From Dehalococcoidia bacterium (GTDB lineage: Bacteria > Chloroflexota > Dehalococcoidia > Lucifugimonadales > UBA3495), in the NCBI GenBank assembly GCA_965197545.1, contig CBDANJ010000008.1:1317035-1381034 (forward strand): a stretch of 64,000 bases of DNA, written 5' to 3'. The notes under the pieces were generated by a model. It saw nothing but the letters and a program-made list of their open reading frames with translations. It had not been told where the DNA came from and did not search any database. Each line of letters begins with the position of its first letter. Positions within the stretch are counted from its first letter, which is position 1. This document shows, one piece after another, positions 3,224 through 58,447 of the stretch. Position numbers and translations under genes: made by a program.

Positions 3224-3255
3224 ACGCACCTTGACGCACCGAAGCGGAGCGCCAA

Positions 3256-3291
3256 CGGGGCCGCTCGTTCCCACGGAGATTGTCGGCCCCG
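3256..3291 (+). terminator. GC hairpin of the CGGGGCCG/CGGCCCCG family
   Basis: Stem 3256-3263/3284-3291 after the nuclease gene stop (3223). Confidence 0.45.
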
Positions 3292-3343
3292 CAATCCATA
3301 TGGGCAACCATCAATCACAACCTAACGTAACGGAGGAACCATC

Positions 3344-3808: not shown

Positions 3809-3849
3809 CTGGACATCCGCACACCGGCGCCTTCCCCAAGGCGCAACCA

Positions 3850-3882
3850 CGGGGCCGTTCCCTCACAGCAGGGGCGGCCCCG
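3850..3882 (+). terminator. GC hairpin, near-identical to 1273-1305
   Basis: ACGGGGCCGTTCCCTCACAGCAGGGGCGGCCCCGCT vs ACGGGGCCGTTCCCTGACAACCGGGGCGGCCCCGCT. Confidence 0.5.
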
Positions 3883-3917
3883 CTCCCGTTTCCAGACTAA
3901 TCGCCAAGGAGTGAACC

Positions 3918-4478
3918 ATGCCCAGGAAGAAGCAAGCCAAGCAAGAGGAAATGCTCCTGTCCATCCCCGAACCCGCCGCTCCCGCCACGCCGGAGGGCCA
4001 CGCCGTGCTGGAGGCCCTGCGCTCCAACCTGGCCCTGCTGGGGGAACTGGCGGCCCGCTACGAGGTCGCCTTCCAGCCGGAACGCCCCGCCGAGATGCCC
4101 ACCATCAACTGCCCGCAGGACGTTCACAACCTGCTGGGGCCGGAGATGTCCGCCCTGGCCCAGGAGCAGCTGCGGGTGCTGCTGCTCAACACCCGCAACC
4201 AGGTGCGGGGGCAGCGGGTGGTCTACATGGGCAACGTCAACTCGTCGGTGATTCGCCCCGCCGAGGTGCTGCGCGCTGCGGTCATCGAGTCCGCCCCCAG
4301 CATCATCATTTCCCACAATCACCCGTCCGGCGACCCAACCCCCAGCCCCGAGGACGTGTCCATCACCCGCGAGTTGGTGCAGGCGGGGAAGCTCCTCGGC
4401 ATCGACCTCCTGGACCACGTGGTCATCGGCGGCGACCGCTGGGTCAGCCTCAAGGAACGGAAGCTGATGGACGTTTAG
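3918..4478 (+). CDS. radC: RadC-like JAB/MPN domain protein
   Basis: JAMM motif ...IIISHNHPSGDPTPSPEDVSITRELVQAGKLLGIDLLDHVVIG. Confidence 0.85.
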   Translation: MPRKKQAKQEEMLLSIPEPAAPATPEGHAVLEALRSNLALLGELAARYEVAFQPERPAEMPTINCPQDVHNLLGPEMSALAQEQLRVLLLNTRNQVRGQRVVYMGNVNSSVIRPAEVLRAAVIESAPSIIISHNHPSGDPTPSPEDVSITRELVQAGKLLGIDLLDHVVIGGDRWVSLKERKLMDV

Positions 4479-4575
4479 CTCCATGACACCGAGACCGGCG
4501 GCGGCGCGCCGGTCCTCACGCGGGGGGTTCCCTTCCCCGCGCCCTTCCCGAATCCACACCTACAGGAGGCACTCC

Positions 4576-5256
4576 ATGATTCCCACGGAACCCGTCCAGA
4601 GCGGCGAGGACCCCGCATCGAGTGCGGGGCAGGCTCTCTACACGATAAGCGCCGGAGGCTACTCGGCCACCGCCGACGCCTTCGCCCGAGACCCCGACAC
4701 CGGCGGCCTCTGGTTCCTGTCGATGGTGGGGCCGCAGACCGCCCTCAAGGCCATCTGGGCCTCCCTGCTCAAGCAGCCGCCCGACACCGCCCACCTGATC
4801 AAGGGCGTGGAGGGCATGGCCCTCTCCGGCGGATACCAGCAGTGCCAGGTCCCGTATCACACCGTCGGCACCTGGACCACCCGCATCGTGCGGCTGCCCG
4901 TAAGCCGGGGCTGGCACGCCCTCGTTTACACCCGGCTGGCGGAGTTCAGCTTCGAGCGGGACGACTTCCTGCTGCTGGCCCAAGACCAGGCCGACGCGCC
5001 GGGGCTGCACCACCGCTTCCTGGACCGGCGCGGCCCCCTGCCCCTGCACCGCTCCTGGCGGGACTGGCTCTGGCGAAGGGGGTTGGACACCGGGGAGACC
5101 GTCCCCCTGGAGTCCGCCGGGCTCCTGGCCTACACCTGCAACCCCAGGGGCGAGGAACTGAAGGCCGACCTGTCGGCGGCGGTGGCGGCGGGGACGCTGA
5201 CCCTCAATGAACCGGAACCCGAAACCGATGAAACGGAGGAAGACAACGATGGATAG
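4576..5256 (+). CDS. hypothetical protein (carries a 24-nt micro-insertion at 4612-4635)
   Basis: AGGAGG 4564-4569 then ATG 4576; no family recognised. Confidence 0.5.
   Translation: MIPTEPVQSGEDPASSAGQALYTISAGGYSATADAFARDPDTGGLWFLSMVGPQTALKAIWASLLKQPPDTAHLIKGVEGMALSGGYQQCQVPYHTVGTWTTRIVRLPVSRGWHALVYTRLAEFSFERDDFLLLAQDQADAPGLHHRFLDRRGPLPLHRSWRDWLWRRGLDTGETVPLESAGLLAYTCNPRGEELKADLSAAVAAGTLTLNEPEPETDETEEDNDG
4612..4635 (-). repeat. AGCCTGCCC-hairpin micro-insertion, copy 5 (24 nt, in frame)
   Basis: Minus strand reads AG|AGCCTGCCCCGCACTCGATGCGGG|GTC; stem CCCCGCA/TGCGGGG. Confidence 0.7.
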
Positions 5257-5656
5257 GACTCTGAACCCGGTGAAGCGGGGCAACAAGCGCCGCCGCTCCC
5301 GCAACTGGAAGGCCTGGCAGCTCTTCTCCCCGGACGGTGACACCTGCCGTTTCTGCCCCCACGGGGCTTCCGACCACCTGACGTCAAGCGGTCAGCCCCA
5401 TTTCTACCGGCCCGCCGCCGAGCAGGACTGGCGGAACTCCAACGAGAAGCTCTACCGCCACGAACTGGCCGACGGCTCCGAGGTGCTGGTCAAGCGCATC
5501 ACCGTCGCCAGCCGCGCCGAGCTGCTGACGGCCTTCTGCACCGCCTGCGCCAAGGACAAGCAGACCGGCCAGGTTCTCTGCTTCCAGCGCACGCTGGCCA
5601 AGGGCGAGGTGGTGGGCCTGACGAACCTGAACGGAAACCACAACGACGGGAGGTAG
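5249..5656 (+). CDS. hypothetical Cys-containing protein
   Basis: GGAGGA before ATG 5249; CRFCPHG and CTACAKD pairs suggest metal binding; start uncertain (ORF opens at 5207). Confidence 0.4.
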   Translation: MDRTLNPVKRGNKRRRSRNWKAWQLFSPDGDTCRFCPHGASDHLTSSGQPHFYRPAAEQDWRNSNEKLYRHELADGSEVLVKRITVASRAELLTAFCTACAKDKQTGQVLCFQRTLAKGEVVGLTNLNGNHNDGR

Positions 5657-5660
5657 CACG

Positions 5661-5930
5661 ATGGCGGACAAGCAGACCCTGTACTTTCCCTGCCCCGGCT
5701 GCGGGGCGCGGTTTGCCCGGGTGGAGGAGACCGGCGAGGACATCCACGCCGGGGAGACCTACACCTGCAACGAGTGCGGCGCGGCGGTGGTGCTCGTCGC
5801 CCTGAGCATGGAGATGCTGGCCGATCCCGCATCCATCCGCTGGAACTGCCACTTCTGCCAGCCCGGCCCCTGCCGGTTGGCCCCGTCCAGCGGCGCCTCC
5901 GGCGACTCCGACAACACCGATTCCAAGTAA
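5661..5930 (+). CDS. hypothetical zinc-ribbon protein
   Basis: CPGCG...CNECG spaced as a zinc ribbon; 4 nt after the upstream stop. Confidence 0.4.
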   Translation: MADKQTLYFPCPGCGARFARVEETGEDIHAGETYTCNECGAAVVLVALSMEMLADPASIRWNCHFCQPGPCRLAPSSGASGDSDNTDSK

Positions 5931-5959
5931 CCCTTTCCACACAACAAAGGAGGACAGAT

Positions 5960-6993
5960 ATGAGACTCGCTGCCCAAGCCAAGGGAGGCTTCTATCCCAC
6001 GCCGCCCCGGGTGGTTGACCTGGCTGCCCAACTGCTCTACGGGGCCAGGGGCCGCTCCCGCAGCGCGGACACCCTGCGCATCCTGGACCCCTGCTGCGGG
6101 GCCGGGGATGCCCTGGCCCAGTTCGCCGGCCTGCTGCGCGACCGCGGCACCGTACCCGTGGAGACCTGCGGGGTAGAGCTGCATAGGGACCGGGCGGAGC
6201 AGGCGGCCCACGTCCTGGACCGCGCCCTGGCCTGCGACCTCTTCGCCACGTCGATAGCCAACAACGCCTTCGGCGTGCTTCTCTTGAACCCCCCTATGAC
6301 TTCGATGCCGAAGACAAGCGCACCGAACACGCCTTCCTCACGCACACCACGCGCTACCTGACCGACGGCGGGCTGCTGCTGTTCATAGTCCCCAAGCAAA
6401 GGCTCTCCGTTTCCGCCCGCTACCTCTCCTCCCACTACCGGGACATCCGGTGCTGGGCGTTCCCCAGCCCGGAACGGGAGGTCTTCGACCAGGTGGTGCT
6501 GGTGGGCCGGCGCAAGGCGGAACCCAGCCCCGACCCCTACGCCGAGGAGCAGGTGCGGGACTGGGCCGAGGGGGAGCCGGAGGAGTTCTCGCCCCGCCCC
6601 TACCCGGTCTACGACCCTCCGGTGGTTGCCGCCGGGGACATCCTCTTCGCCACCCGCACCGTTGACCCCCTGGCGGCGGTGACCGAGGCTCGGAAGACCG
6701 GCCTGTGGGCCAGCCAGGAGGTCAGGGACTCCCTCTGGCCCGCCCAGGACCAGCGCACCCGCCCGTTGATGCCGCTCCGCCGGGGCCACATGGCCATGCT
6801 GGTGGCGGCGGGTTTCCTCGACAACCTGGTGCTGGAGGCCGAGGGAAGGCGCATCCTGGTCAAGGGGCGCACCACCAAGGAGCTGGTGCTGGCCGAGGAG
6901 ACGGAGAACACCGAGGTCTACCGGGAACGGCTCAAGACCACCGTCGTGGCCCTGGACCTGGACGACGGGGAGATCACCGACATCGCCGCCTGA
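5960..6993 (+). pseudogene. SAM-dependent N6-adenine DNA methyltransferase, frame broken in a C6 run
   Basis: AGGAGG then ATG 5960; motif I ILDPCCGAGDAL; LLLNPP then frame slips at CCCCCC 6289-6294; the next frame continues YDFDAEDKRTEHAFL... to 6993 (restores NPPY). Confidence 0.7.
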
Positions 6994-8525: not shown

Positions 8526-9750
8526 AACCAAAGCCAAGGTGAAACGTGCAGGAGCGTCCGGTAGAATCGGGGGAGTCGCAGGTGCGACGCGGGAAGCAGG
8601 AGTGGGATGGTGCTGGGCATGGGAGAGATCGACCGGTTCCTGGAACAGTGGGAAATGGACGCGCCGGGTGTGCACCAGCGGCTGATTCTGGCGCCGACAC
8701 CCCGGGAGCGATGGCACGCCATCTGGCTCCTGTCCCAGGGCTGGAGTGCCGCGGACACTGCCGTGGCCCTGCGTAGGGATTCTCATACCATAGGGAAGTG
8801 GCTTGCCGCCTTCGGCCAGGGCGGCCCGGCGGCTTTGATTTTCGAGCAGTCCGGAGGGTCCCCCCGCCCTTGGCCAGGCGCAGCGGGAGGAGTTGAAGGC
8901 GGCGGTGCAGGAACCTCCTGGCGCATCGGGCATTGGCTTGGCCAACTGGAACTGGAGGGCGGTGTGTCAGTTTGTCCTGGAGTGCTTCGGCGTCAGCTTG
9001 AGCCGCAGCAGTTGCCTGAACTACCTGCACCGCTTGGGATTCGCCTTCAAGCGGCCCAAGAAACGCCTGCTCAAGGCTGATGTGGAAAGGCGGGAGGCCT
9101 TTGTGGCAGAGTACGCTTCCTTGGTGGAGGAGGCGCAGGAGAACGGGGAGAAGATATTCTTCGCCGACGAGGCCCACTTCCGGGCGGACGCCGAGTTGCG
9201 GGGCAAGTGGGTGCTGAGGGGAGAGCCGGCCTTGGTAGACTCGACCAGCCCGAGGTACGGCGAGAAGGCTAGCTACTATTCGGCGGTGTGCTTGGAGACG
9301 GGGAAAGTGGAGTGGATGGAGTTGGAGGGAAACAGCAACAGCGAAACGTCGGCAGCCTTCCTGGAGCAATTGCGGGAGAAGCACGGAGGTCGGCTGAACG
9401 TGATCTGGGACAACGCGCCAGCGCATCGCGGCGAGGCGGTGAGGGAACTCCTGAAAAGGCCCGGACTGAACCTGCGGCTGGTGAATCTGCCGGGGTACAG
9501 TCCGGACTTCAATGCCGATGAGGCCATCTGGGGCTGGGCGAGAGAGGAGGCGACCGGCAACCTGTGCCTGGGAAGCAAGGGGCTGGTGCAGGAGAGAGTC
9601 GGCAGCTTCCTCGCCGGGCTGGTCAGCCGGAAGGACGAGGTGAAACGCCGTTGCCGAACCGTCCTGCAATCACGGACCGCAGGATTACTGCGCTCCACCC
9701 AGCCTGATTCCCAACATCCAGCAAATGCACATCCCACCTTGGCTTTAGTT
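8526..9750 (+). mobile_element. IS630-family insertion sequence with TA target duplication
   Basis: Inverted repeats AACCAAAGCCAAGGTG (8526-8541) and CACCTTGGCTTTAGTT (9735-9750) flanked by TA (8524-8525, 9751-9752). Confidence 0.8.
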
Positions 9751-9753
9751 TAG
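8607..9753 (+). pseudogene. IS630-family DDE transposase in two frames (shift at C6 run 8860-8865)
   Basis: HTH part ...WLLSQGWSAADTAVALRRDSHTIGKWL..., then ...IFFADEAHF...VIWDNAPAHRG...LPGYSPDFNADEAIW...; frames join at ...SGGSPP/ALGQAQREEL. Programmed frameshift versus indel not resolvable. Confidence 0.7.
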
Positions 9754-9792
9754 ACCGGTTGGACAAGGCTTTAGTTTAGACCGGTTGGACAA
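9741..9792 (+). repeat. 26-bp perfect tandem duplication spanning the IS630 right end/target junction
   Basis: GGCTTTAGTTTAGACCGGTTGGACAA x2 (9741-9766, 9767-9792). Confidence 0.9.
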
Positions 9793-10995
9793 GTTTGTCG
9801 AGAACGTGCTGATACCAGCCCACACCCGTGGCTCAGACCGGAGAGACAACCGCGAGTACACACGTTTGCTGAACCAAGCGGCCCGCCAGAGGAAGCGGGG
9901 GAACCACGCCAAGGCACTGCAACTGCGCAAGCAAATGCAACAACTGCCATCGCGTGACCCCTACGACCCCGGCTACCGCCGGTTACGGTACGTGCGCTAC
10001 GCGGACGACTTCGTGCTGGGTTTCATCGGGCCAAAGGTCGAAGCCCAACAGGTGAAAGAGTCCTTGGAGACGTTCCTGCGCGACTCGCTCAAGCTGGAGC
10101 TATCCAAGGAGAAAACTCTCATAACCCACGCCACCAGCCAGGCGGCGCGGTTCCTCGGCTACGAACTCGTGAACCAACAGGCCAACGACCAGTTTGACCG
10201 CAATGGTCGGCGCAGGGTCAACGGCCAAATCGGATTGCGGGTCCCCGCCGACGTCATCGAACAACACTGCCAAGCCTACATGCGCAAAGGCAAACCGGCA
10301 CACCGCAGTTACCTACTCCACGATGAAGATTACTCCATCGTGGCACAGTACCAGTCGGAGTTCCGGGGCGTCGTCAACTACTACCTTCTGGCCTACAACG
10401 TCTCCCATTTCGGGCGACTGCAATCGGTCATGGAGATGTCTTTGGCACGGACCCTTGCGGCAAAGCACAAGTCCACCGCACGGAAGATGCGACGCCAGTA
10501 CAAGAGCGTCGTGGAAACCGAGCACAGGCCGCGTGTCTGTCTCAAGGTCGTCAAGCAACGGGACAACGGCAAGCCACCTCGCGTGGCATATTTCGGTGGC
10601 ATCCCCCTGAAACGGCAACGGCAGGCCGTCCTAGTAGACCAACAGCCTCAACGGTACAGGAGCGGCCGCAACGAGCTTATCAAACGGCTCGAAGCGGACG
10701 AGTGCGAGGTGTGCCACTCAACGGTGAAAGTAGAAATTCATCACATCCGCGCACTTCGCGACCTGAACGTGAAAGGCCAACGGGAAAAGCCCAAGTGGGT
10801 ACAAATCATGGCGGCGCGAAAACGCAAGACCCTCGCGGTCTGCCGGACGTGTCACATGGACATCCACCACGGGCGCAAGTAATCCGCAATCGCAGCGGTA
10901 GTTAGTGTCCTCGGCTTAGGCAAAAACCAAAGTCGGGCCAGAGCCTTTCCTCCAACAATGTATTGGGCTACGGTATCCGGCAGAGGTGATAAAGC

Positions 10996-11196: not shown

Positions 11197-11223
11197 ACAC
11201 TACCGCTTTGTAAAGACACTGGA

Positions 11224-11257
11224 GAGCCGGATGCGGTGAAAGCCGCACGTCCGGTTC
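11224..11257 (+). ncRNA. group II intron domain V
   Basis: GAGCCGGATGCGGTGAAAGCCGCACGTCCGGTTC, canonical 34-nt DV with GAAA loop and AGC triad. Confidence 0.9.
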
Positions 11258-11320
11258 GGAGGGGGGCCGACGGAAAAGTGCCCTGAGCAATCAGGGTAAC
11301 TCGCCGGCGGCCTACCCTAC

Positions 11321-14463: not shown

Positions 14464-14724
14464 TCAACTCAGTCCCGCAAGGCCGAAAAAAGTGGGCTTA
14501 AGGGGACTGTTCACAGTACCACCTTTGAGTTGGTAGTGGGCCTGTAGATCCCTTAAGCGGACAGCGTGATTGTTAAGCTCCTCCGTTATATATGGCAACG
14601 TGAACTCGTCAACACTGCCTTTGCCCCAAGGATGTGCATCTGGAGCCGACTGTCGAGTTCGCCTCTCACATTCCCTTGCATATGAAGGTGCCACAAGTAA
14701 TTGTACTAGGTGGGCAGTTGTCAA
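14464..14724 (-). CDS. hypothetical protein (86 aa)
   Basis: ATGA overlap with the upstream gene (14721-14724); same AT-richer composition. Confidence 0.4.
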   Translation of the reverse strand: MTTAHLVQLLVAPSYARECERRTRQSAPDAHPWGKGSVDEFTLPYITEELNNHAVRLRDLQAHYQLKGGTVNSPLKPTFFGLAGLS

Positions 14725-15518
14725 ACATCTAGCTCAGCAACGGCGAATGACTGCAATGCGGCCGCGACATGGATCGCTAGCTCCGCTCGTGGTCCCGTGG
14801 GTTCATTGCCACCTATGGAAGCGTGCCTAGCACCGACAGTTCCGCTGCCTTGGCTGTAGAGCGCACCGAATAGTCGCTTGATTCCACCGGGCAAGTCGGG
14901 CCGCAAATTTTCACTGACTATGGTGGGAAGTGCCACGCTTGGACGGTCGAAGATAACCTGCAGTACCCCCTCGACGGAATTAACGGCCTCCTTGATGGCA
15001 TTGGGCCAATCGGGAGGCAATCTGTTTCTGAACTCGTAAGCACGTTCGAACTGTCGGCGAGGCTCGTCAAATTTCTCATCCTCCAGGGCGGTCCTAGCAT
15101 CATTGACCGCACCATGGAATTCTTCCGTGCCTACACGGACCAGATTCCCCGAGTCAAAACGGTACCCGATTCCTTCGTCTGCAAGAATTCCATTAGTTGC
15201 TTCGTAGTATGGCTCAACTTCCTGCTCGGGCAAGAACCTAGGAATTCGCTCCAACGCATCGAAGAACTTATACCAAGGCCCTGTCTGAATCAGTTGTGAT
15301 ACCTCAAAATCAACATTTGGATAATCACTCCAGTTATTTTGGTCTGGAGTGATTCTGAGTGCGCTACATAGGATTTGTCGCTGTGCTGTCGGCCTTTGGT
15401 AACCCAGAACATGCAGCACCTCACGAATTCCAATGCGGATGGCATCGGGAGCGTCGTCATACACCAAGTTGGTTCCATTCCTAAAGCCTTCACGCAAAGA
15501 GAATGGTTGATTTGTCAT
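14721..15518 (-). CDS. AbiJ-N-terminal-domain / Abi_C-like protein (putative abortive-infection component)
   Basis: N-terminus MTNQPFSLREGFRNG...DDAPDAIRIGIREVL fits my memory of the AbiJ NTD pattern (FSxRxG...LRxxLW). C-terminus ...LFGALYSQGSGTVGARHASIGG... resembles the Abi_C/HEPN-like conserved GxRH region. From memory only. Confidence 0.4.
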   Translation of the reverse strand: MTNQPFSLREGFRNGTNLVYDDAPDAIRIGIREVLHVLGYQRPTAQRQILCSALRITPDQNNWSDYPNVDFEVSQLIQTGPWYKFFDALERIPRFLPEQEVEPYYEATNGILADEGIGYRFDSGNLVRVGTEEFHGAVNDARTALEDEKFDEPRRQFERAYEFRNRLPPDWPNAIKEAVNSVEGVLQVIFDRPSVALPTIVSENLRPDLPGGIKRLFGALYSQGSGTVGARHASIGGNEPTGPRAELAIHVAAALQSFAVAELDV

Positions 15519-16389: not shown

Positions 16390-18202
16390 CTAGAAACTGG
16401 GCCGGAAAGTCCTGGTTGGGTAGGGGAATTTGGGCAGTAAAGCCGATGTGAGCAGAATCACGGACCACAGTTGTCCGAGCCGGACCTCGCAGAAATTGGC
16501 CGCAGCATGGGCGACAACAAAGGGGACAATATTGAAGACGACGCTGCGGCCTGTTGCGCCGCCGCCGGTACGGCCCGACCACCCGAGTTTCCCGGCCGCC
16601 AGGGTCAGGTTGGCTACTGTGGCAGCCAGATACAGCTGGAACCTGGTCTTGACCCTGCCGAAATATCGGGACTGGCGAATGCCCAACTGGACCAGTCGGG
16701 CCAACCGGTGTTCCACCACCACCCGGCGCACTCGATATTCGTCATAGTGAGTGCTTTGCTGCAACGCTCGGGCCTGCTGCAGCAGGGCTTCCTGGGGATG
16801 GAGCAGCACCCGCCGCCCCCTGCTCCCCTTGGCTGCGATGCACTGGGACCGCAGTGGACATGTCCGACATTCGGCCCCGTCGAACTGGAAGGCCTGCAAG
16901 CGGTGGACCCGCCCCGTGCGACCCGTCCGCTTTCCCGCCGGCACGATGGTGTGGGTAACCTGTCCCGCCGGACAGGTGCAACTGCCCGCGGCCAGGTCGA
17001 TGACAAAGTCATCCTTGGGAAAGTGCTTCCGGTCGGGCCTTCCCGGCACTCTGGCCACCAAACAGCGTCCCGCATCGGCGAAGGCCTGCCTGGTATCGCC
17101 GTCCCCATAAGCGGCATCGCCCATGGCTTCCTCCACCGGCACACCGGTGTTGGCCTCGCTCTGCTCCACCAATTCCAGCGCCCCCAGGTTGTCCGGAGCG
17201 TTGCCGGGCAATACCTCCACCGCGGTGATCAGCTGGGAGTCGGTGTCCACCACAATCGCCGCCTTGTGGCCGTCAAACCGTCTACTGCTGCTCTTGCGGC
17301 CGTGGCGCATCTCCGGGTCATGCACCGACATCATCCGGTCCCGGCTCACCCCGTCCTTGAGATTCACTCCGTCATCGGCCCGCTCCACGTCCTGGAGCAG
17401 CAACTGCCCCAGCAGTTCCGCTGCGGCCACTATCTGCTGCCGCTCAGCGCTGTCATCCCCCAACTCCCCCTGCGCCCGCCGCGACAACTCCAGCAACCGG
17501 TCCGCGTCAGCTACTATCAAGGACAGCAGCGCCGTCCGGTCCCGTTTGTTGCTCCAGTCGATGGCGGCCTCGCCCTTGATGCTGGAGGCAAGGTACCGCC
17601 CATATCCCCGGGCCTTGGCCCATTTCCCGACGCTGATTCCCTCAACCTGCGACAGCGCCCGCAGCAGTTTGACGATCCCGTCCGCCAACAGGTTGTAGGT
17701 GTCCTTCACCGCGCCCCGCCCCAGGATGTTGGTCGTGTCCAATGCCACCCGCATCCCGCGCCCTTTCAGATACCCCGACTCCCGGGCCAGTCTCAGACTG
17801 GACTCGAACACCTCCCGCACCTTGCCGTGCAGGATCAGCTGGGCGCGGAACACCTGCAGCGTGCTCTTGGCGAAGGGCCGGTCTTCCGCCTCAATTCCCA
17901 ACGCCACCCCCGGTCGTGGCCGGGGGCAGGCTCTTCCAGCGGAGGTCAAAGTCGGCCCGGGCCTTGGCCTCGGCGTCGCTCACCTTGTCGTGGGACTGCA
18001 ACAGCAGCGCCGTCGCCAGCAGGCTGGGCGGCACGCTGTCCCGGCCGTTGTCGGGGCAGTAGAACTCGGCGAAATCCGCGTCTCGGAACAGCCGGCCCCG
18101 CAGCGACGCCAGAAGACCGTAGAAGCTTTCCCGCCCCACATGGTCCAGATACAACCGATCCGCTTCCCAGAACCCTCTCTGGTCCGAACGCTCTCCCAGC
18201 AT
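16390..18202 (-). pseudogene. IS1182-family transposase, frame broken only by a 25-nt micro-insertion
   Basis: N-terminal part ...SVPPSLLATALLLQSHDKVSDAEAKARADFDLRWK then 25 nt (17908-17932) then VALGIEAEDRPFAKSTLQVFRAQL...; CTCPAGQ...CRTCPLRSQC block; stop lies in the IR. Confidence 0.8.
17908..17932 (-). repeat. AGCCTGCCC-hairpin micro-insertion, copy 1 (25 nt)
   Basis: Minus strand: ..TGGAAG|AGCCTGCCCCCGGCCACGACCGGGG|GTGGCG..; stem CCCCCGG/CCGGGGG. Confidence 0.8.
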
Positions 18203-47184: not shown

Positions 47185-48696
47185 CTATGAAATATATTCG
47201 CTCCAATGTCGCAAGGACACGCCCAAGGACTCTTCTACCCAAGCGATGAATCGCGGCAAAACCGCGTCGGCCTTATCTTCCCAAGTAAGAGTGAACAAAT
47301 TTACAGTGCAGTCCCGGAAGTCTCGTTCCACCGGACCTTCCGCCAAATCCGAATCCGACCCGGAATGACTCTCGATCCTGGCAAATGCCGTTGCCGCCAT
47401 TACACCTGTGAGCTGCCGCCCAACGTGGTGGAGTGAGACCACAAAGACTAGGCGCGGCGCCCGATTGCGGTCCTCTGGATCAAAAGAGAGCTTTACCCAG
47501 AATCTCGGTTCATTTCGATTAACCCAGTGTGGGGCGTTGTTCGCAGTCTGTACTACCTCGGCGGCGTACCAATGCTCTCGGTCGTTGGGTCCCCCGCGAT
47601 CGACAAAGAAACGGACAGGGAAGTTTTCATCCAGAAACCTACCGTGAATCTGCTGTGCTTGATCTTCCAGGAATGTTGCTGCGTGGTCTCTCAGGTCAGA
47701 CGACGTATCGCTAACCGATCTAAGTTCCCTGAGTCTGTTTTGGTTTTGCCGTCTGATTTGACTGACGATATGATCAACGACTTGATCTACTAATCCGAAG
47801 TCAGCAACCGGTTCTGGTTCGCCAAGAGCCTCCAACATCGTCTGCTTTTCGATCTGTAATATCAAGTCAACGAACGGAGCAAGACTTTCCGAATCTGCTG
47901 ATTCCAAGCTCTCAATATACTGAGTCCTTTCGTCCCGAGAAATAACCACCGGCAAGAATTCTTCCTTGGCCAAATGCCATGTAAGCAACGCGCGCGCAAC
48001 ACGACCGTTCCCGTCTTGGAAGGGGTGAATTTGAGTGAACCTGTGGTGAAGCCACGCTCCCACCAAGAGTGGGTGATATTCGGTGTCTGGCTGTTGAAGC
48101 TCGTTGTACCAATTGACGAGATTATCAAGTTCGCTGTCGACTTGAATTGGCGGGCAGTACTCGTGAATCAGTCCGTCGGATCTGGTGGGATTGTTGGGTT
48201 GCGTTTTGAAGCCACCGTGGTCAAGAGGAGTTTCGAACCTCGTACCGAACTGGTTAATGGCGGTATACGTAGGCTGATTGCGGGTCAAGATTTGGTGCAA
48301 CTGCTGAATATAGAATTTGGAGAAGGGATGTTGCCTCCGGATGTGTTCAATTACAAATTCCGCTGCACTCTGATGGTCCCGCAGGACTCGCACGAGGTCC
48401 TGCGGGTCGCGGTTTGTTGATCCGCGATCGATCAAATCAGCAACCAATCCATTCTCAACCAGGGTCTGCGTTAGGCTCCTGTCGATGTCGTATATGCCCT
48501 CGATTATCCCTGTTTCAATGGCCCAACGGCGTTCCAATCGATCCATGAAGGCGTCATAGGCTTGTGGATTGGAATCTTCGCGTTGTTTTCTGATACTTAC
48601 CCATTGCTGATGAAGTGAATTGACTTCACTGAAGTCATAGGATTCACCGAAGGGCCCCGGAGGGCTGATTGGTAGCCAGTTATGTGCTCTGACCAT
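47185..48696 (-). CDS. Fic-family protein with N-terminal TxxxEG inhibitory-type motif and an about 170-aa uncharacterised C-terminal domain
   Basis: HPFQDGNGRVARAL Fic motif; AIETGIIEGI upstream; AT-richer than its neighbours. Confidence 0.85.
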   Translation of the reverse strand: MVRAHNWLPISPPGPFGESYDFSEVNSLHQQWVSIRKQREDSNPQAYDAFMDRLERRWAIETGIIEGIYDIDRSLTQTLVENGLVADLIDRGSTNRDPQDLVRVLRDHQSAAEFVIEHIRRQHPFSKFYIQQLHQILTRNQPTYTAINQFGTRFETPLDHGGFKTQPNNPTRSDGLIHEYCPPIQVDSELDNLVNWYNELQQPDTEYHPLLVGAWLHHRFTQIHPFQDGNGRVARALLTWHLAKEEFLPVVISRDERTQYIESLESADSESLAPFVDLILQIEKQTMLEALGEPEPVADFGLVDQVVDHIVSQIRRQNQNRLRELRSVSDTSSDLRDHAATFLEDQAQQIHGRFLDENFPVRFFVDRGGPNDREHWYAAEVVQTANNAPHWVNRNEPRFWVKLSFDPEDRNRAPRLVFVVSLHHVGRQLTGVMAATAFARIESHSGSDSDLAEGPVERDFRDCTVNLFTLTWEDKADAVLPRFIAWVEESLGVSLRHWSEYIS

Positions 48697-49247
48697 AAGA
48701 ATGCACTCCGCCCAATCCCGACTATTAAGGATACTCTGAACAAGCCCTGTCCGCGGCCTGATTGGGATTGCCGGCAGGGCAATCGCGTTTTAATTCGTAA
48801 CGGTATGCTGGCTCACCTTTTGCGCGTTTTGTTGGCTTGGAAACCCTCGAATCACCATTCAGGGATCCCAATGTGGCCCGCTCAATGGGAGAGGGGATGT
48901 CGAGAAAACCAGGTTTTGAGGCAAATTGCCCTATCCTTAACAGTTATTGTGGTGGCAATCAAGAACAATTTTGGCCTACGGTTTATAACGCGATTGCCCT
49001 GGGGTTGCCGGGTCAGTTTTGCGGAAATATCCGGCCTGCGGCTCGTTTTCTGCAATGTCCGGCCCCCTCACCTGCTCCCACAGGAGCCTTTGCGGGCCTT
49101 GATCGGTCCCAGCGGCGGTTCGGGGGAGAATTTGGGCCCACTGCTCCCCCATCACCCGGCCAGGCGGCCCTCCACCGTCAGCAGGTTGCCCAGTCCCAAA
49201 AGCAGCGTCAGCCGCTGCGTGTTCTTCGCCAAGCCCCGGTAGCGCAC

Positions 49248-49270
49248 CCCCGCTTTCGCGAGGGCAGGCT
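49248..49270 (-). repeat. AGCCTGCCC-hairpin micro-insertion, copy 3 (23 nt, GAAA loop)
   Basis: Minus strand: ..GCCAAG|AGCCTGCCCTCGCGAAAGCGGGG|GTGCGC.. Confidence 0.8.
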
Positions 49271-49318
49271 CTTGGCGTACCCGAACACCCGCTTCGCTTT
49301 CAGGAAGGGGTGCTCCAC

Positions 49319-49343
49319 CCCCGATCGCCGTCGAGGGCAGGCT
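49319..49343 (-). repeat. AGCCTGCCC-hairpin micro-insertion, copy 2 (25 nt, imperfect stem)
   Basis: Minus strand: ..GCGAAG|AGCCTGCCCTCGACGGCGATCGGGG|GTGGAG.. Confidence 0.8.
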
Positions 49344-49916
49344 CTTCGCCCGTATCGATGCCTTGTTTCGCTCCGCCAATGCTTCCCCGCTGCCCGGGTC
49401 CGGTTTCCGCCGCTGCCCCGGCCGCATCGCCACCTGCCAATTCACCTCCCGTCCCCGGTTCTCCTCCCGTTTCCCGGCTCCCCGATACCCGGCATCCCCC
49501 CGCACTTGGGACTCTCCGCCGTGGAGCAGCCGGTGCGCCTCGCTCACGTCATGCACGTTGGCCGCCGTGGTGGTCATGCTGTGCATCACCCCCGTCTCCG
49601 AGTCCACCTCGATGTGCAGCTTCATCCCAAAATGCCATTGATTCCCCTTCTTCGTCTGGTGCATCTCCGGGTCCCGCTCCCCAGTCCGGTTCTTGGTGGA
49701 CGACGGGGCTTCGATGATGCTAGCATCCACGATGGTTCCCTCCCTGAGCCGCAGCCCCTGGGCCTCCAGATCACGGTTAATCTCCTGGAACAGACCCTGG
49801 CCCAGCTCGTGTTGTTCCAGCAGATGGCGGAAGTTGAGGATGGTGGTCTCGTCGGGCAGGGCATCTGGCAGCTTCAGACCCACGAACCGCCTGACCGACT
49901 CGGCCTCGTACAGCAG

Positions 49917-49939
49917 AGCCTGCCCCCGTGAAAACGGGG
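49917..49939 (+). repeat. AGCCTGCCC-hairpin micro-insertion, copy 4 (23 nt, GAAA loop, antisense to the gene)
   Basis: Plus strand: ..CAGCAG|AGCCTGCCCCCGTGAAAACGGGG|GTCCTC.. Confidence 0.8.
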
Positions 49940-50251
49940 GTCCTCCATGCCGGGGTCACTGAGGTTGTAGAACAACTGGACGCAGTGGACCCGCAGCATT
50001 ACCGGCAAAGGATAGGGCCGGCGGCCGTTTCCAGGCTTGGGATAGCAGGGCCGGATGCGGTCTTCCAATCGCTGCCAGGGAATCAGGCCATCCATGCGTT
50101 CCAGAAACAGTTCGCGGCGGGTCCGGCGTTTCTTGCCCTGGTATTCCAGGTCGGCAAAGGTGGGGCTGGTCCATCTGCTCTTGTCCCTCCGGCGGCATCA
50201 ACTCTTTCAGCCTCAGTATGCCATAACCTGCTGGACTTGTTCAGAGTATCC

Positions 50252-50366
50252 CTAGGATGGCGCCCCGGTCGTATGCGTCTCGGAGCCAATTTCTCGAAGC
50301 CGGACCATGTCGAGGGTCGCCGAGAAATAGGGCTAGCAACACATTGGTGTCGACGGCTGTGATCAT
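50252..50366 (-). pseudogene. vapC: PIN-domain VapC toxin, 5' fragment truncated by IS5
   Basis: MITAVDTNVLLALFLGDPRHG... overlaps the antitoxin stop (ATGA) and ends at the IS5 inverted repeat. Confidence 0.65.
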
Positions 50367-50578
50367 CTACCTCGGATCTCTTCAAGATACTCATCTGTGT
50401 CCCCGCCTTCGCCCAATACTGCGTAGGCGCGGTCCACCGGATGTATCATGGCGGACCGTTTGCGGACCAACAGTCCTTCTGGCGTCGCGGTGATCCCTAC
50501 TTCCGCATCAGCGTCCAGTCCGAAGCGTTCTCGAAGGTACTTGGGAATCGTAATCTGACTCCTATGGGAAATCTTCAT
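50363..50578 (-). CDS. vapB: AbrB/MazE/SpoVT-family antitoxin
   Basis: MKISHRSQITIPKYLRERFGLDADAEVGI... Confidence 0.75.
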   Translation of the reverse strand: MKISHRSQITIPKYLRERFGLDADAEVGITATPEGLLVRKRSAMIHPVDRAYAVLGEGGDTDEYLEEIRGR

Positions 50579-52567: not shown

Positions 52568-55274
52568 CTATGATATAGCCCTTTCCAGGTTCAGGGCCAA
52601 CAACCGCTCCAGTATTTCAGGACCAGTCAGGTCGTGAGGCCAGCCGTAGGCGTCCAAAACCGCTTTGTCCAACCGCTGGTGGACCATCTGTAGCCACGTG
52701 GGGCGGGCGTTGTAGAGGTTGGTCAACGTCCGCTTCTTCAGTTCCGGCTCTGAGGCATCCGGCGGGTTGAGCCAGCCTTCTCGCAGCCGGTTTAGCTCTT
52801 CCGCTTCCTTGCCTATGGCCGCGCGTTGCTGTTCTGTTGGTCTTGGAAAGGGGAACGTCTCAAAGCAAGTGGTGGGCGTGTAGGTTCCTCCGCTATGAGA
52901 TTCGCGCAATTGGCTGCCCAATCTTCTGGCCCAGGATTCGTGGATCGACGACGACAATATTCCGAGCATGTAATCCTCATCGCTGGCTATTGCGATGACC
53001 AGGTTGGAGGCCAGCATTTCCTGCGTCAACCAAACGAAGAAACGATGCTTAGAAACCTTCGGAGTCCCAATATATCGTGATTTATGTGATAAGGCGCGAC
53101 GCATCGAAATCGCTGGATAACCATGCAACCACCAATTCTGTGCACGCCAGGGCATATTATTGGTGATTCGCTTTGGCTTCACCCACTTCTTGACATATTC
53201 GAAGGGCGCCTCGTAGAGAGCGGCCTCGGCCTCTGGCATATCGACACCAAAGTCAACGACCCAAACGTTGCGCGCACGACGTGCAATATCAATCCCATTA
53301 ATCCACCGCTTGAGCACGTCTCCGTTGGGCTTTCCGTGGGGGTTTGGGTCAATAAGCATGTTTGACGCGGTGGCCTCGGGCATATCGAAATCGCCTACTT
53401 TGCCCACACCTTGGAATGCTAGGTTCTGGTTCTTTTCAAGTGCTCTTGCCTGTGTGAGATCGAGACCGGCTGTTAAGTCTGCGTTGATGCCGGTTACCGT
53501 TTCCCCGTCAAGGATTCGATCAGTTGCACTCCCGTCGTCGAAGCAGATGATCGAGATGTGTACCGTGGCACCATCTAAAACCCAATTCTGATCGGACGTA
53601 GCCTCGAAGATGTCCCCTGAATCCTTGATTCGTGAAAGGACCGCCCGATTGGACTGGAAGCGAATAGCTTGGGTTCCCAGCAGGCCGGCGCGTTTAGAGC
53701 TTCCGCCTTCGATCTGGCCACGAGCCTTTTCAAACCAATAGCAGCACAGGTCACTGGCATGCGGGATGCGATCGCCATAAAGCGAGTACAGGGCCTCCAC
53801 ATAGGCGTCGCCGAGTTGCTCTCTGAAGGGGAAGTGGCCCAAGAACGGCGGGTTGCCGATGATAAATTCCGCTTCCGGCCATTCCGGCTCCTTGGGATTC
53901 GCTTCGTCCGAAAGGTCTAAAATCGCGTCGGTCTTCCTAATGGAGACTAGAGGCGTGAGGACCGGGCTGTGGTCGTAGGGGAAGCCGTTGTTCTGGTGCC
54001 ATTGGATGTAACCGATCCATAACGCGGTGCGGGCCAATTCCGCGGCGTAGGGGTTGATCTCAAGCCCTAGCATTTGGTCGGGCTTCACCGTGGGCGCCAG
54101 GCCGGGCCACCCATGGGCCGCCGCGAAGTCGATGACCTGCTTCTCCAGGTCCAGCAGGCACCGCAGCGCCAGATACAGGAAGTTCCCGCTCCCGCAGGCC
54201 GGGTCCAGCACTTCAACCTCGAAGAGCCGCTGCTGAAATGCGCCGAGTCTCACCCGCGCCGCGTCTACTTCATCTTCGATAAGAAGGTTGCCCGCCTCCT
54301 GTTGAACCGCCTCCCATTCGGCTCTCAACGGGGCCATCACCACCGGCTCCACCACCAGCATGATATTCCTCGGCGCTGGTGTAGTGGGCGCCCAGATGCG
54401 CGCGTTTGGACGCATCCAGCGCCCGTTCAAACAGGGTGCCGAAAATCGAGGGTTCGATGTTCCGCCAGTTCTTCTTGGTAGCTTCGCCCAGCCGGAACAA
54501 CGCCGACTCGCTTAATTCAACCGTGTCCGCATCGCTGAACAGGTCGCCGTTGAAATATGCGATCTGAGTGGCGCCGAACATGCCTCCCTGTGCCATCTGC
54601 TCAAACAAGTTTCGAACAGCCTGGTCGAAATGCGCGGGGTCTCGAAAGTAGGTGCGCACGATCTCGGAAAACGGGGAGCCGGAGAGCAACCCGGCATCTT
54701 CGGCGTAGAGACAAAACACGATTTGATTTAGGTACCTGGCAAGTTTTTCCGGGTCTTGCGTATGCTGCTCCATGTCTTCGACGATGGCCTGGAAGAGGTC
54801 GGCGGTCTCCTTGGTCACCGTGTCCACCGAGCGGTCTGGACGCAATTCCGCCGGCGAAAAGAAAGCGTACCGGAGCTTGTCCAGGTTTGCGGGTTGGTCT
54901 AACTCGACGACCGCAAACTCGTGCCGCACCGTCTCCATGCCCGGAAAGTTGGTCTGTATCCAGATTGTCTTAAACGAAGACACGATGAGCAACGGAGGCG
55001 TCTTCAAATGCACCTGGTAACGGAGCAATTGGAGCAGGGCGCCGGGAAGTTCGGCATCGCTGCCCTTGAATTCCCAGCCGAATGAGCCTTCCAAATAGGC
55101 GTCGGCGAAGCCGCCGGGCACCTGCTTTTCAAAAGTGAATACCTCTTTGTCCCCGTAGTCGACCGGGGTGGGATGCCCGGCCAAAGCGCAGATATCCAGG
55201 AACATCTCCTGGGACGCCTGCTTCTCGCCAAATTCGACGCCGCGCCACTTGGCGACGAACTGTTCCGAGGACAT
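52568..55274 (-). pseudogene. MmeI-like type IIL/IIG restriction-modification enzyme, one frameshift near 54363-54368
   Basis: N-terminus MSSEQFVAKWRG...GFADAYLEGSFGWEFKG (D..ExK); ...LGAHYTSAEE / NIMLVVEPVV... joins the two frames; LDPACGSGNFLY and IIGNPPFLG methylase motifs. Confidence 0.75.
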
Positions 55275-55341: not shown

Positions 55342-58254
55342 CTATCCGTCGTCGGCGACACCAACGGCTTGCCTCTCCGCGCGAGTGCCGTTGAGGAGGT
55401 CTTGGATATAGCGTCCGGTGATCGATTCGGCCATCCCGGCCAACTCCTCCGGCGTGCCCGTGGCGATGAGTTCGCCTCCCAGGTCTCCTGCCCCCGGTCC
55501 AAGGTCGATGATCCAGTCGGCGTTCCTGATTACGTCCAGGTTGTGCTCGATCAGGATCACGGTGTTTCCCGCATCAACCAGCCGGTGCAGCACGCGCAGC
55601 AAGGCGGCGCAGTCTTCGAAAGACAGGCCCGTGGTTGGCTCGTCCAGCAGGTAGAGGGTCTTGCCCGTGGCGCGGCGGGAAAGCTCCGTGGACAGCTTCA
55701 CCCGTTGCGCCTCGCCGCCCGACAGCGTGGTCGCGGGCTGGCCCAACCGGATGTAGCCTAGCCCGACGTCCCGTAGGGTTTCCAGCTTGGGCCGGATGCG
55801 CGGGAAGTTCTCGAAGAACTCCAGAGCCTGGGCAACCGTCATGTTCAAGACATCGGCGATGCTCTGACCCCGGAGCGTGACTTCCAGCGCCTCCCGGTTG
55901 TACCGGCTGCCGTGGCATATTTCGCAGGGAACGGTGACATCCGGGAGGAACTGCATCTCGATCTGGTTGTAGCCTTCGCCGCGGCACGCCTCGCAGCGGC
56001 CTCCCTTGACGTTGAAGGAGAACCGGCCAGGCTTATAGCCCCTAACCCTGGCTTCGGGTAGGTTGGAAAACAGCTCCCGAATCGGCGTAAAGGCCCCGGT
56101 GTAGGTCGCGGGATTGCTGCGGGGCGTCCGCCCGATGGGAGATTGGTCGATGTTCACCACCTTGTCGACGTTCTCGATTCCAACGACCTCGTCATGCTTT
56201 CCGGGTAAATCTCTGGCGCGGTAGAGAATCTGGGCCAACCTCTTAAAGAGGATGTCGTAGATCAAGGTGCTCTTGCCAGAACCGGACACCCCGGTGACGC
56301 ATACGAGTTGGCCCAGGGGAAACTCGACGTCTATACCCTTCAGGTTGTTCTCCCGCCCGCCGCGGATGGCCATAAACTTGCCGTTGCCTGGCCGCCGCTC
56401 ATCCGGAACAGACACCTTCTTCCGGCCGCTTAGGTATGCGCCGGTGAGGGACTCCGGGGCGTCCATTACGTCCTGGAGCGTGCCTGCCACCACCACCTTC
56501 CCGCCGTGCTCTCCCGCTCCTGGGCCGAGGTCGGCGATGAAGTCGGCGGCGCGCATCATCGCTTCGTCGTGCTCCACCACGACCACCGTGTTGCCCATGT
56601 CCCGCAGGCTGCTCAACGTGCCAATGAGCCGGTAGTCGTCTGCTGGGTGCAACCCAACCGTCGGCTCGTCGCAGACATAGAGCACTCCGGTAAGCCCCGA
56701 GCCAATCTGTGTAGCCAGGCGGACCCGTTGGGCCTCGCCGCCTGAGAGGGTGCGGGCCGTGCGGTCCAGGGTCACATAGTCCAGGCCAATGTTCTCGAGG
56801 AACCGCAGCCGACCTTCGATCTCTTTGAGTATCTGGTTGCCGATGGTCTTCTGGCGGACGGTCAATGTGGAGCCGAAATGTTTGACCGGGGCGTCGGGAT
56901 CGATGTCTTGTACCCAGTCCAGGGCTTGCCCAATGTTCCTGGCGCAAACATCCATGATTCCCGACTCGCAGACCTTTACGGCCAGCGCTTCGGGACGCAG
57001 ACGCTTGCCTTCGCATGCACGGCAATTCCGAGCCGCCATGTAACGCTCGATGTCCTGGCGGGTATGGTCCGACTCGGTCTGCTTGTAACGCCGCTCTAGG
57101 TTGGGAATCACACCCTCGAAGGATGTGTCCCAACTGTAGGTACGCCCCCGGTGGGTGCGGTGGCGAACCGTTACTTTCTTCGTTCCGTTGCCGTAGAGGA
57201 CCAGGTCAAGCTGCTCTTTGGTCAGGTCCTTGACCGGCGACTTGGCGGAGAAGCCGTTGGCGGTGGCGATGGACTCCAGCACACTTACATACCAACTACT
57301 GGCGGGGCCGCTCCGAGACCAGGGGGCGATGGCTCCCTCGGTCAACGACAGGTTTTTGTTGTGGACCACCAGTTCAGGGTCTATCTCCAGCTTGTAGCCC
57401 AGACCGGTGCAATCGCTACAGGCCCCGTGGGGGCTGTTGAAACTGAAGGTCCTGGGCTCGATTTCCGGCAGGCTGGTCCCGCAGCGCACGCAGGCGAATT
57501 GTTCCGAGAATACCAACTCCTCGCCGTCTTCCACGTGGACCTGCAAAACGCCATCGCCCTCTCTGAGGGCGGTTTCCACCGACTCGGCGACCCTGGTCAT
57601 CTCGGTGTCTTCCCGCACGATCAGCCGGTCCACCACGATCTCTATGTAATGCCATTTCTGCCGGTTGAGGTTGAGGTCGCCCATCTCGTCCAGCACGTGG
57701 ACTTCGCCGTTGACCCGGACCCGGACGAATCCGCCGCTGCGGGCGGTCTCGAAGACGTCCTTGTGTTCCCCCTTCTTGCGCCGGATCTTCGGGGCAAGAA
57801 GCAGCAGGCGGCTGCCTTCAGGCAGCGACATTATGGCGTCGACAATCTGTTGGATGGTCTGCCGCTCCACCGGCCGGCCGCATTTGGGGCAGTGCGGGGT
57901 CCCGACGCGGGCAAAGAGCAAGCGCAGGTAGTCGTAGATCTCGGTGACGGTGCCCACAGTGGAACGGGGGTTGTGGGAGACGCCTTTCTGGTCGATGGAG
58001 ATGGCGGGGGACAGGCCTTCGATGTAGTCAACGTCCGGCTTATCCATCCTGCCGAGAAACTGCCGGGCATAGGCCGAGAGGGATTCCACGTAGCGGCGTT
58101 GCCCTTCTGCGTAGATGGTGTCGAAGGCCAGCGAACTCTTACCCGACCCGGAAACGCCGGTAATGACCACCAGCTTCTCCCTGGGGATGGTCACGTCGAC
58201 GTTTTTAAGGTTGTGCTCGCGCGCGCCCTTGACGTGAATGAATTCCTGGGGCAT
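55342..58254 (-). CDS. uvrA: excinuclease ABC subunit A
   Basis: [60 protein letters not shown]...; two ABC modules and zinc fingers. Confidence 0.95.
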
Positions 58255-58447
58255 ACAAACCCACCTGCCACACAATGATTCTTGGCCCATTTTAGCACTC
58301 TTGCTCAACCGCTCGCTCCACTATCTGAGATAAAATACGCGAGGTCTATGCGTTGGAAAGAGACATTTCAGCCCGCCTAACGCAGCAGATATGCACCGAG
58401 TGTTTCGGTTAAACAGGCGGGGACGCACCTTGCACCGGGAGGCCAGG

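Follow-up and report, generated by a model that had tools for sequence, protein, structure and literature searches.

AGCCTG-tagged single-hairpin micro-elements in transposase genes of a Dehalococcoidia bacterium and in genomes of many bacterial phyla

The stretch of DNA analysed here, hereafter the window, comprises 64,000 nucleotides (64 kb) from a Dehalococcoidia bacterium of the phylum Chloroflexota (assembly GCA_965197545.1, contig CBDANJ010000008.1, positions 1,317,035 to 1,381,034). On its minus strand at 48726..50255 lies a decayed insertion sequence (IS) of the IS5 family with inverted repeats TAAGGATACTCTGAACAAG and CTAGGGATACTCTGAACAAG, whose transposase gene carries three inserts of 23-25 nt. 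Two further copies of the same hairpin element occur in the window, one in an IS1182-like transposase gene (16390..18202, minus strand) and the other in a gene without Pfam family (4576..5256, plus strand). These five copies belong to a widespread family of very small dispersed elements made of a single hairpin, namely a tag AGCCTG followed by a 7-bp stem (CCC[C/T]NNN), a loop of 4-6 nt and a GGGG end.

Within the IS5 transposase gene, copy 1 (49917..49939, plus strand, AGCCTG-CCCCCGT-GAAA-ACGGGG) is 23 nt long and antisense to the gene, sitting between GAC and CTG (..PGMED/LLYE..), that is at a target CAG^GTC on the strand of the element. Copies 2 and 3 are sense to the gene and form direct repeats 48 nt apart, copy 2 (49319..49343, minus strand, AGCCTG-CCCTCGA-CGGCGA-TCGGGG, 25 nt) at AAG^GTG (..RAK/VEH..) and copy 3 (49248..49270, minus strand, AGCCTG-CCCTCGC-GAAA-GCGGGG, 23 nt) likewise at AAG^GTG (..YAK/VRY..). 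The IS1182-like gene holds copy 4 (17908..17932, minus strand, AGCCTG-CCCCCGG-CCACGA-CCGGGG, 25 nt), in the sense orientation and again at AAG^GTG (..DLRWK/VALGI..), and copy 5 (4612..4635, minus strand, AGCCTG-CCCCGCA-CTCGA-TGCGGG) is an in-frame insert of 24 nt, antisense to its host gene at GAG^GTC. All five are intragenic singletons and are flanked by nAG^GT(G/C). The window was scanned with the pattern AGCCTGCCC-N8-20-GGGG, which requires CCC...GGGG and no stem pairing, shuffled sequences serving as chance control. It returned 5 distinct loci (8 overlapping pattern matches) against a shuffle mean of 0.14 and a maximum of 3 matches, which confirms the five positions given in an earlier note on this DNA, made from the letters alone. 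Though pairing was not demanded, the full 7-bp stem with a 4-6 nt loop is present in 5/5 copies and DNA folding predicted the hairpin each time. As that note had argued, the hairpin is kept by compensatory changes, the inner stems being all different and mutually compensated (CCGT/ACGG, TCGA/TCGG, TCGC/GCGG, CCGG/CCGG and CGCA/TGCG); the stem that it took to be imperfect is actually a perfect 7-bp stem with one G:T pair.

Once copies 1-3 are excised, the fragments fuse into one IS5-type frame, whose protein matches DDE_Tnp_1 and DUF772. The claim that the three inserts split a single transposase thus stands, as does the reckoning that the inserts of copies 2 and 3 together keep the frame (25 + 23 = 48), the open reading frame (ORF) 49152-49883 being open across both. 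Homologues of the reconstructed transposase (316-325 aa) have no extra residues at the insert positions (e.g. ..PGMEDLLYEAE..). In addition, alignment with the ~95 % identical IS5 copy of the metagenome contig L001 leaves clean gaps at copies 1, 2 and 3 (23, 25 and 23 nt, respectively), the 80-nt junction at copy 2 being 100 % identical; the site of copy 1 is also empty in L270. The hairpins do disrupt the frame, as had been claimed, but the element is dead for other reasons as well. Relative to L001, it shows an additional C in the C-run just past the ATG (MDQP..., 50170-50190) and a 12-nt deletion of one REENR repeat copy (49440-49460), besides a W>R change within the conserved VWGDAGY motif of the transposase. 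Its 3' end also contains a 227-bp insertion resembling a miniature inverted-repeat transposable element (MITE), at 48775-49001 in minus-strand reading and missing from the L001 copy, with CAGGGCAATCGCGTT / AACGCGATTGCCCTG as its 15-bp terminal inverted repeats and with the target imperfectly duplicated over ~9 bp (CCGGCAAYC). The IS5 and IS1182-like transposase genes are both broken by hairpins, and the IS5 was decaying anyway. No close relative of this IS5 was found in the plasmid database PLSDB, and it is absent from the uvrA regions of ~90 % identical relatives (L150-L160), fetched to compare insert presence.

Of the two other copies, copy 4 breaks its gene and copy 5 does not. Copy 4 divides the IS1182-like transposase gene into two ORFs at K/V; its excision gives a single DUF772 + DDE_Tnp_1_6 protein with DUF772 matched unbroken across the junction, and the ungapped empty site is present in L216. 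Copy 5 adds 8 residues, PASSAGQA, without breaking its gene, and exactly those residues are absent from the homologues P0363, P0390 and P0295 (81-89 % identity). Empty counterparts thus exist for 5/5 window copies, which are real insertions of a dispersed hairpin element with precise boundaries and, as had been argued, no random indels. The host gene of copy 5 stands beside RadC in a syntenic module conserved in L274. This module (window 341-6400: Rad52, an unknown gene, a single-stranded DNA-binding protein (SSB), RadC, another unknown gene and a DUF6094 methyltransferase) is syntenic with positions 1-5300 of L274, a contig of GCA_026705805.1, and resembles a section of a prophage or integrative element. 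In L274, a 57 %-identical homologue of the host gene contains, at 3040-3066 on the minus strand, the hairpin GGCCTG-CCCCGCA-CTTGA-TGCGGGG, that is the rare stem variant of copy 5 with the tag GGCCTG, 6 bases from the window site, and closer homologues have no hairpin; the site is thus either a hot spot or one where an early insertion was afterwards lost precisely.

Beyond the window, 1.9 Mb of fetched loci, scanned with stem pairing required, gave 224 distinct copies, for which 45 filled/empty pairs were obtained, i.e. the same flanks joined without the element at another locus; an exact empty counterpart exists for at least 25 different sites. The insert length equals the folded structure minus 1 base in 42 of the 45 pairs, tetraloops (25 pairs), pentaloops (13) and hexaloops (4) giving inserts of 23, 24 and 25 nt, respectively. 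As the insert is composed of the AGCCTG tag (6), a stem arm (7), the loop and a right arm (6) and is one base short of the structure, the G closing the seventh pair belongs to the target. The boundary is accordingly ambiguous by 1 nt, a G, and not by the 2 nt originally supposed. No target-site duplication was seen in the 45 pairs, where the empty sites read (C/A)AG^G(T/G/A). The target AG^GT, earlier regarded as fixed, is found at 5/5 window copies, but it represents a preference. Among the listed matches of a flank-free genome scan, position -2 is A in 80/120 contexts and position -1 is G in 72/120; among unbiased secondary candidates near seeds (n=33, a few of which are chance hairpins), AG lies upstream in 21/33 and G at +1 in 28/33, AG upstream being present in about 60-78 % of unbiased copies. 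Relative to the host gene, both orientations are found. Bases 3-6 of the tag read CCTG, which exactly complements the target CAGG, and the common variant targets AAGG, CATG, CAAG and CGGG are each one position off CAGG. A single hairpin is thus inserted at a 4-nt site precisely, without duplication and independently of orientation. Three other accounts of the junctions were rejected: a serine-recombinase (IS607-like) or integron-like crossover, the flanks (AG...G) not being the same dinucleotide on both sides; a template switch with microhomology, AG being present twice at the left junction and not shared; and a variable stem templated by the flanks, no relation being seen by eye.

The tag reads AGCCTG in the 5 window copies and in 219 related copies. 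In these 219 copies, stem pairs 1-3 are always C:G, pair 4 is C:G in 142 and T:G in 77 but never T:A, and pairs 5-7 covary, with 17 double-change cells over the three pairs among 24 distinct tetraloop sequences. The loops are GAAA, GGAA or GAAG, which dominate, or else C..GA penta- and hexaloops. Both the wobble and the loops being strand-specific, it is on the AGCCTG strand that the structure matters, be it as single-stranded DNA (ssDNA) or as RNA. Mini-hairpins of the CGC-GAAA-GCG type are unusually stable as DNA. A search of positions 49200-49990 against Rfam 15 gave only sub-threshold chance matches.

The family extends well beyond the host lineage. Scanning GTDB with one genome per species for flank-free 24-nt tetraloop variants (AGCCTGCCCYCGNGRAANCGGGGG) retrieved at least 113 stretches and at least 120 distinct contexts. 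They lie in metagenome-assembled genomes (MAGs) of Dehalococcoidia and other Chloroflexota, Alpha-, Gamma- and Deltaproteobacteria and Syntrophaceae, as well as Planctomycetota, Poribacteria, Latescibacterota, Bacteroidota, Fidelibacterota, Atribacteria (a contig of 33 % G+C) and a bacterium of the candidate phyla radiation (CPR). The identical 24-nt sequence recurs in MAGs of more than 10 phyla as well as in viral contigs, and the element was found in Illumina and long-read assemblies of many projects. A scan of viral contigs that included flanks gave about 27 true hairpins in 100 matches, mostly with the stem CCCCGGA/TCCGGGG and loops CTTGA, CCTGA or CTCGA, and a flank-free scan for this stem variant found 58 viral stretches; a six-frame ORF-span test of the viral matches was set aside as too noisy in high-GC DNA. 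The 72,556 sequenced plasmids of PLSDB gave three weak partial matches only. With many phyla represented and plasmids nearly devoid of it, the family is broad but found mostly in uncultured lineages. As for the window itself, the UvrA encoded at 55342-58308 (minus strand) shares 97-98 % identity with proteins of Dehalococcoidia MAGs, including OZ250155.1. A cyanobacterial origin was discarded, UvrA being closest to Dehalococcoidia MAGs and the HIP1 octamer occurring just once in 64 kb; the parallel drawn earlier with cyanobacterial repeats does not hold as to the host, the lineage being Chloroflexota and the family spanning many phyla.

The bias toward transposase genes suspected in the earlier note is borne out by a Pfam scan of the peptides flanking 95 listed genome matches. 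It gave 21 family matches, 20 of which are transposase domains from at least six IS families (DDE_3 8, HTH_33 4, DDE_Tnp_1 3, DUF772 2, DDE_Tnp_1_4 1, IS110 DEDD 1 and IS91 Y2 1), the sole non-transposase flank being an enoyl-CoA hydratase (ECH_1). An ISAs1-like host case was read directly. In the window lineage, 8/8 copies lie in mobile DNA, with seven independent events in IS genes and none in intergenic DNA, and in L158, a ~90 % identical relative of the window, 3/3 copies are in IS630-family genes. Transposases are genuinely overrepresented relative to ordinary genes. Selection would leave part of this excess, as an insert of 23 or 25 nt destroys a gene while one of 24 nt adds eight residues, the latter in-frame class comprising copy 5 and most viral-contig copies; yet tolerance alone does not predict seven IS events against zero intergenic ones in the window lineage. 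One possibility is that the IS, phage or integrative element picked up the hairpins during residence in other hosts and then carried them along. Most of the 120 listed contexts have no transposase annotation, many copies are in non-coding repeats, and single-copy contexts were seen in Proteobacteria. At loci other than the window (L161, L199, L221, L231, L237 and L175), AGCCTG copies sit inside the loops of CGTC-type hairpins, which marks the AGCCTG element as a distinct family. At L175 (3440-5500), from a related Dehalococcoidia, AGCCTG hairpins within CGTC-type CGTCATTCCCGCG...CGGGAATCC hairpins are part of a thicket of nested micro-repeats that also holds a CATGTCCTCGA-CCCCGATCGGGG family, CCTTCCCCC-GTCGA-GGGGGAAGG hairpins and 7-nt tandem repeats; a 595-aa ORF, probably spurious, reads through it.

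The same sites recur among IS630-like transposase genes. The window copy of this type (8650..9760, plus strand) has no hairpins, and three sites occupied in related copies from other genomes fall at about 8827/8828, 9231/9232 and 9485/9486 in it, one of them having lost the +1 G in the window copy. Nine IS630-like copies were compared, their lineages being ~20 % divergent. None of the three sites is filled in the window copy and L238, sites 2 and 3 are filled in L158, L165 and L245, and all three are filled in L241. The 98 % identical L194 and L211 are filled at site 1 and site 3, respectively, each being truncated at the other's site. The hairpin of site 3 is identical in all filled copies despite the ~20 % divergence, and near-identical copies (98-99 %) in different MAGs have the same two hairpins, although the overall filled/empty pattern is mosaic and does not follow IS similarity. 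Similarly, the hairpin of copy 1 is identical in the 77 %-identical IS5 of L207, and its site is empty in the 95 %-identical L001. These patterns reflect either recurrent insertion at the same sites or old insertions with precise loss, both of which imply a specific, scar-free reaction. With the hairpins excised, 8/9 IS630-like copies are stop-free in the aligned part of a 286-codon frame, the partly aligned copy of L164 having one stop codon. The ratio of non-synonymous to synonymous substitution rates (dN/dS) is 0.20-0.27 between filled lineages and 0.18 between empty ones, and it reaches 0.63-0.75 in young filled clades, a value derived from few substitutions.

Two minor observations concern these IS630-like copies. 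In those of L165 and L245, alignment columns 334-350 hold a 16-nt insert, TTCGGCAGGCTCAGGA, which contains the reverse complement of AGCCTGCC followed by a stem stump and is apparently an internally deleted copy of the AGCCTG element at a fourth site. In the window, the IS630-like transposase directly adjoins a group II intron remnant. This remnant consists of a reverse transcriptase/maturase/HNH ORF (9785-10882) that misses most of the reverse transcriptase domain and of Rfam Intron_gpII domains at 11222-11320, the only gathering-level Rfam match of the window; the 5' half of the intron may have been displaced by the IS630-like element.

Comparison with known small repeats places the AGCCTG element close to, and yet apart from, repetitive extragenic palindromes (REPs). 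The CGTC and GTAG super-families are REPs with a terminal tag, including dRS3 and RPE-4/-6, and CGTC REPs, like the AGCCTG element, lack a dedicated transposase (Di Nocera et al., 2013; PMC3733652). Like them, the AGCCTG element combines an unpaired conserved tag with a G/C-rich stem-loop within 20-40 nt, its stem variants keep pairing, it occurs in several phyla, and some intragenic copies add in-frame residues. Unlike them, its tag is AGCCTG (6 nt) instead of GTAG or CGTC, with an upstream flank of mostly CAG or AAG, and its 7-bp stem starts with CCC and lacks a 3-nt tail. In addition, REPs are mainly extragenic, located downstream of ORFs and often arranged in head-to-head dimers, whereas AGCCTG copies are mostly singletons and predominantly within transposase genes. 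For the AGCCTG element, moreover, the 45 filled/empty pairs fix the exact insert, the target CAG^G and the lack of duplication.

The small dispersed repeats SDR1-8 of heterocyst-forming cyanobacteria were reportedly described by Elhai and colleagues in 2008 as 21-27 nt elements with conserved ends and a hairpin kept by compensatory changes, argued to be the smallest mobile elements; they are said to nest in other small repeats and mini-transposons and to be confined to one cyanobacterial subgroup. We know of no mover for these SDRs. The AGCCTG element resembles them by its inserts of 23-25 nt, the covariation of pairs 5-7 and, at related loci only, its nesting in other small repeats. It differs by its presence in Chloroflexota and more than 10 other phyla without cyanobacterial limit; it is set apart from SDR1-8 by description only.

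IS200/IS605 elements (IS608, ISDra2) find their target by means of a short sequence that lies 5' of the hairpin foot. With these elements and the related palindrome-associated transposable elements (PATEs), as well as with the RAYT/REPtron system (RAYT, REP-associated tyrosine transposase), the AGCCTG element shares a strand-specific hairpin, a short specific target without duplication and possibly precise excision, and the short CCTG 5' of its hairpin foot could likewise recognise CAGG. Unlike IS200/IS605, it has one hairpin and not two different sub-terminal ends, shows no detected strand bias and inserts within its tetranucleotide (CAG^G) and not after it, and tblastn with IS200 TnpA and E. 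coli RAYT found no Y1 gene nearby. MITEs differ from it in another way, the AGCCTG element having neither target duplication nor IS-like ends; the 227-bp element of the window, with its 15-bp repeats and ~9-bp duplication, illustrates the difference. Short G/C-rich palindromic inserts in genes and mobile elements are also known from yeast mitochondria as mobile G+C clusters and 'byp' elements, the latter being bypassed by ribosomes, but these belong to a eukaryotic organelle and have unrelated sequences, and the AGCCTG element shows no sign of ribosome bypass. Literature searches with the strings AGCCTGCCC, GCCTGCCC(C/T)CG and CGCGAAAGCGGGGG returned primers and unrelated matches only, the older literature being largely outside their reach, and keyword searches returned the REP classification paper and nothing on an AGCCTG tag. 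No description having been found, the AGCCTG-tagged family appears undescribed, as had been suspected, and is best seen as a relative of REP/SDR-like repeats, with the reservation on SDR1-8 made above.

On balance, we lean towards a new family of REP/SDR-like micro-elements with a tag of its own, which is probably moved as ssDNA by means of a trans-acting enzyme and is both retained in and carried along by dispensable mobile DNA, REP/RAYT-like movement being the best guess by analogy. The element would move as single-stranded DNA, and its putative mover would most likely act in trans, recognise hairpins and be of the REP/RAYT or IS200/IS605 (HUH-Y1) type. The guide would be the CCTG immediately 5' of the hairpin foot, through its pairing with the target CAGG, and on insertion the G of the target supplies the seventh stem pair. 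Copies of 23 or 25 nt, being frame-shifting, would survive only in dispensable DNA, while those of 24 nt could persist in-frame in ordinary genes, and copies lodged in IS, phages and integrative elements would be multiplied and carried between hosts.

Several points weigh against this proposal. tblastn with IS200 TnpA and E. coli RAYT gave no match in the window and the 1.9 Mb of loci, a weak test given the two queries and the sparse sample, in which a RAYT, being single-copy, could have been missed. A lagging-strand ssDNA mechanism might produce strand bias, and none was detected by GC skew (107 vs. 112), the 8-kb skew being a weak proxy. The copies are singletons with one hairpin, whereas IS200/IS605 use two ends and REPs usually occur as dimers or clusters. 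The finding of 100 % paired stems among the 219 copies is circular, as the scans demanded pairing; the window pattern and the viral scan are the independent sources. The GNRA-type loops and the conserved G:T(U) wobble suit an RNA intermediate equally well, the same variant at the same site in divergent IS could reflect old insertions with precise loss or gene conversion, and the match of CCTG to CAGG is a 4-nt observation that would arise by chance at roughly 1 %, by a rough, uncomputed estimate. A bolder version of the ssDNA proposal, in which a pan-bacterial mobile DNA of ~23 nt with a 4-nt CCTG guide inserts at CAG^G and leaves it precisely, thereby acting as a reversible on/off switch of IS, is unlikely. 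If true, such scar-free switching would explain the undamaged hairpin-bearing IS630-like genes, and no smaller unit that selects its own target would be known.

The main rival is RNA-mediated spread, in which a transcript folds, with its GNRA loop and G:U wobble, and is copied back to DNA by a reverse transcriptase, as Elhai and colleagues are said to have proposed for cyanobacterial SDRs. The dominance of GAAA, GGAA and GAAG loops and the T:G pair 4 in 77/219 copies, never T:A, both strand-specific, fit this view, and the window does contain a group II intron reverse transcriptase/maturase. However, the G:T pair and GNA/GNNA loops are stable in DNA hairpins too, no reverse transcriptase is linked to copies, precise and duplication-free insertion at a 4-nt site is unlike known retro-insertion, and the occurrence of both orientations relative to host transcription excludes insertion into host mRNA, so that we regard RNA-mediated spread as unlikely. 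It is similarly unlikely that the element has no current mobility, its copies being old passengers of IS, phages and integrative elements distributed by horizontal transfer and gene conversion, with empty sites arising by deletion. The IS630-like copies of 98-99 % identity that carry the same two hairpins in different MAGs, the same variant at the same site in divergent IS lineages and the 8/8 window-lineage copies in mobile DNA are what passengers would show. Against this stand the exact empty counterparts of at least 25 sites, the mosaic presence independent of IS similarity, the copies nested in CGTC-type REP loops, the single-copy contexts of Proteobacteria and the fact that spontaneous deletion is not expected to remove 23-25 nt exactly where the flanks share a mere 1 nt of homology.

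The transposase excess could also suggest that hairpins are inserted on purpose, by a host or competitor system, so as to disable transposase genes. The 20:1 ratio among annotatable listed contexts, with at least six mechanistically unrelated IS families, points that way, as do the seven independent IS events against no intergenic one in the window lineage. We nevertheless consider the host process raised in the earlier note highly unlikely: most of the 120 listed contexts are unannotated, copies occur in both orientations and, outside IS, in REP loops and other micro-repeats, in the ECH_1 gene and in the gene of copy 5, and the IS630-like copy of the window is untouched at its three sites, though one has lost the +1 G. 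Beyond the 4-nt target, nothing could recognise unrelated transposases, and selection with hitch-hiking explains the excess. Removal or bypass at the RNA or translation level, as a micro-intron or a ribosome hop leaving the transposases functional, would account for the hairpin-bearing IS630-like ORFs without other stops or frameshifts over 286 codons (the partly aligned L164 with its one stop aside) and for a between-lineage dN/dS of 0.20-0.27, similar to the 0.18 of empty copies. It is very improbable, as both orientations occur in the IS5, with an A.C mismatch to be expected in the antisense RNA, take-off and landing codons do not match, dN/dS within clades is up to 0.63-0.75 and no Rfam match was found. 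An origin by chance similarity, by random indels or as an artefact of assembly or adapters can be practically dismissed: the small size of the motif speaks for it and nothing else does, whereas 5 loci were found for 0.14 expected, the gaps against L001 are clean and compensated variants are present in Illumina and long-read assemblies of many projects.

Few DNA units that appear to be mobile are as small as the AGCCTG element, and the origin and movement of REP-like micro-repeats are a long-standing question for which this family offers clean material, combining an exact insert, a 4-nt target, no duplication, dozens of filled/empty pairs and a built-in candidate guide. Its mostly uncultured hosts and its near-absence from plasmids of cultured bacteria may explain why it was overlooked. 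In practical terms, inserts of 23-25 nt fragment genes of transposases and mobile elements, and annotation pipelines will label the fragments as pseudogenes or spurious ORFs.

Besides, defence or addiction genes surround the IS copies of the window, at 14721-15518, 47185-48696, 50241-50578 and 52568-54430. The set comprises a protein with an AbiJ N-terminal domain, a Fic-domain protein, a small two-ORF pair that is toxin-antitoxin-like by appearance only and an MmeI-type methyltransferase/restriction protein, which adjoins uvrA.

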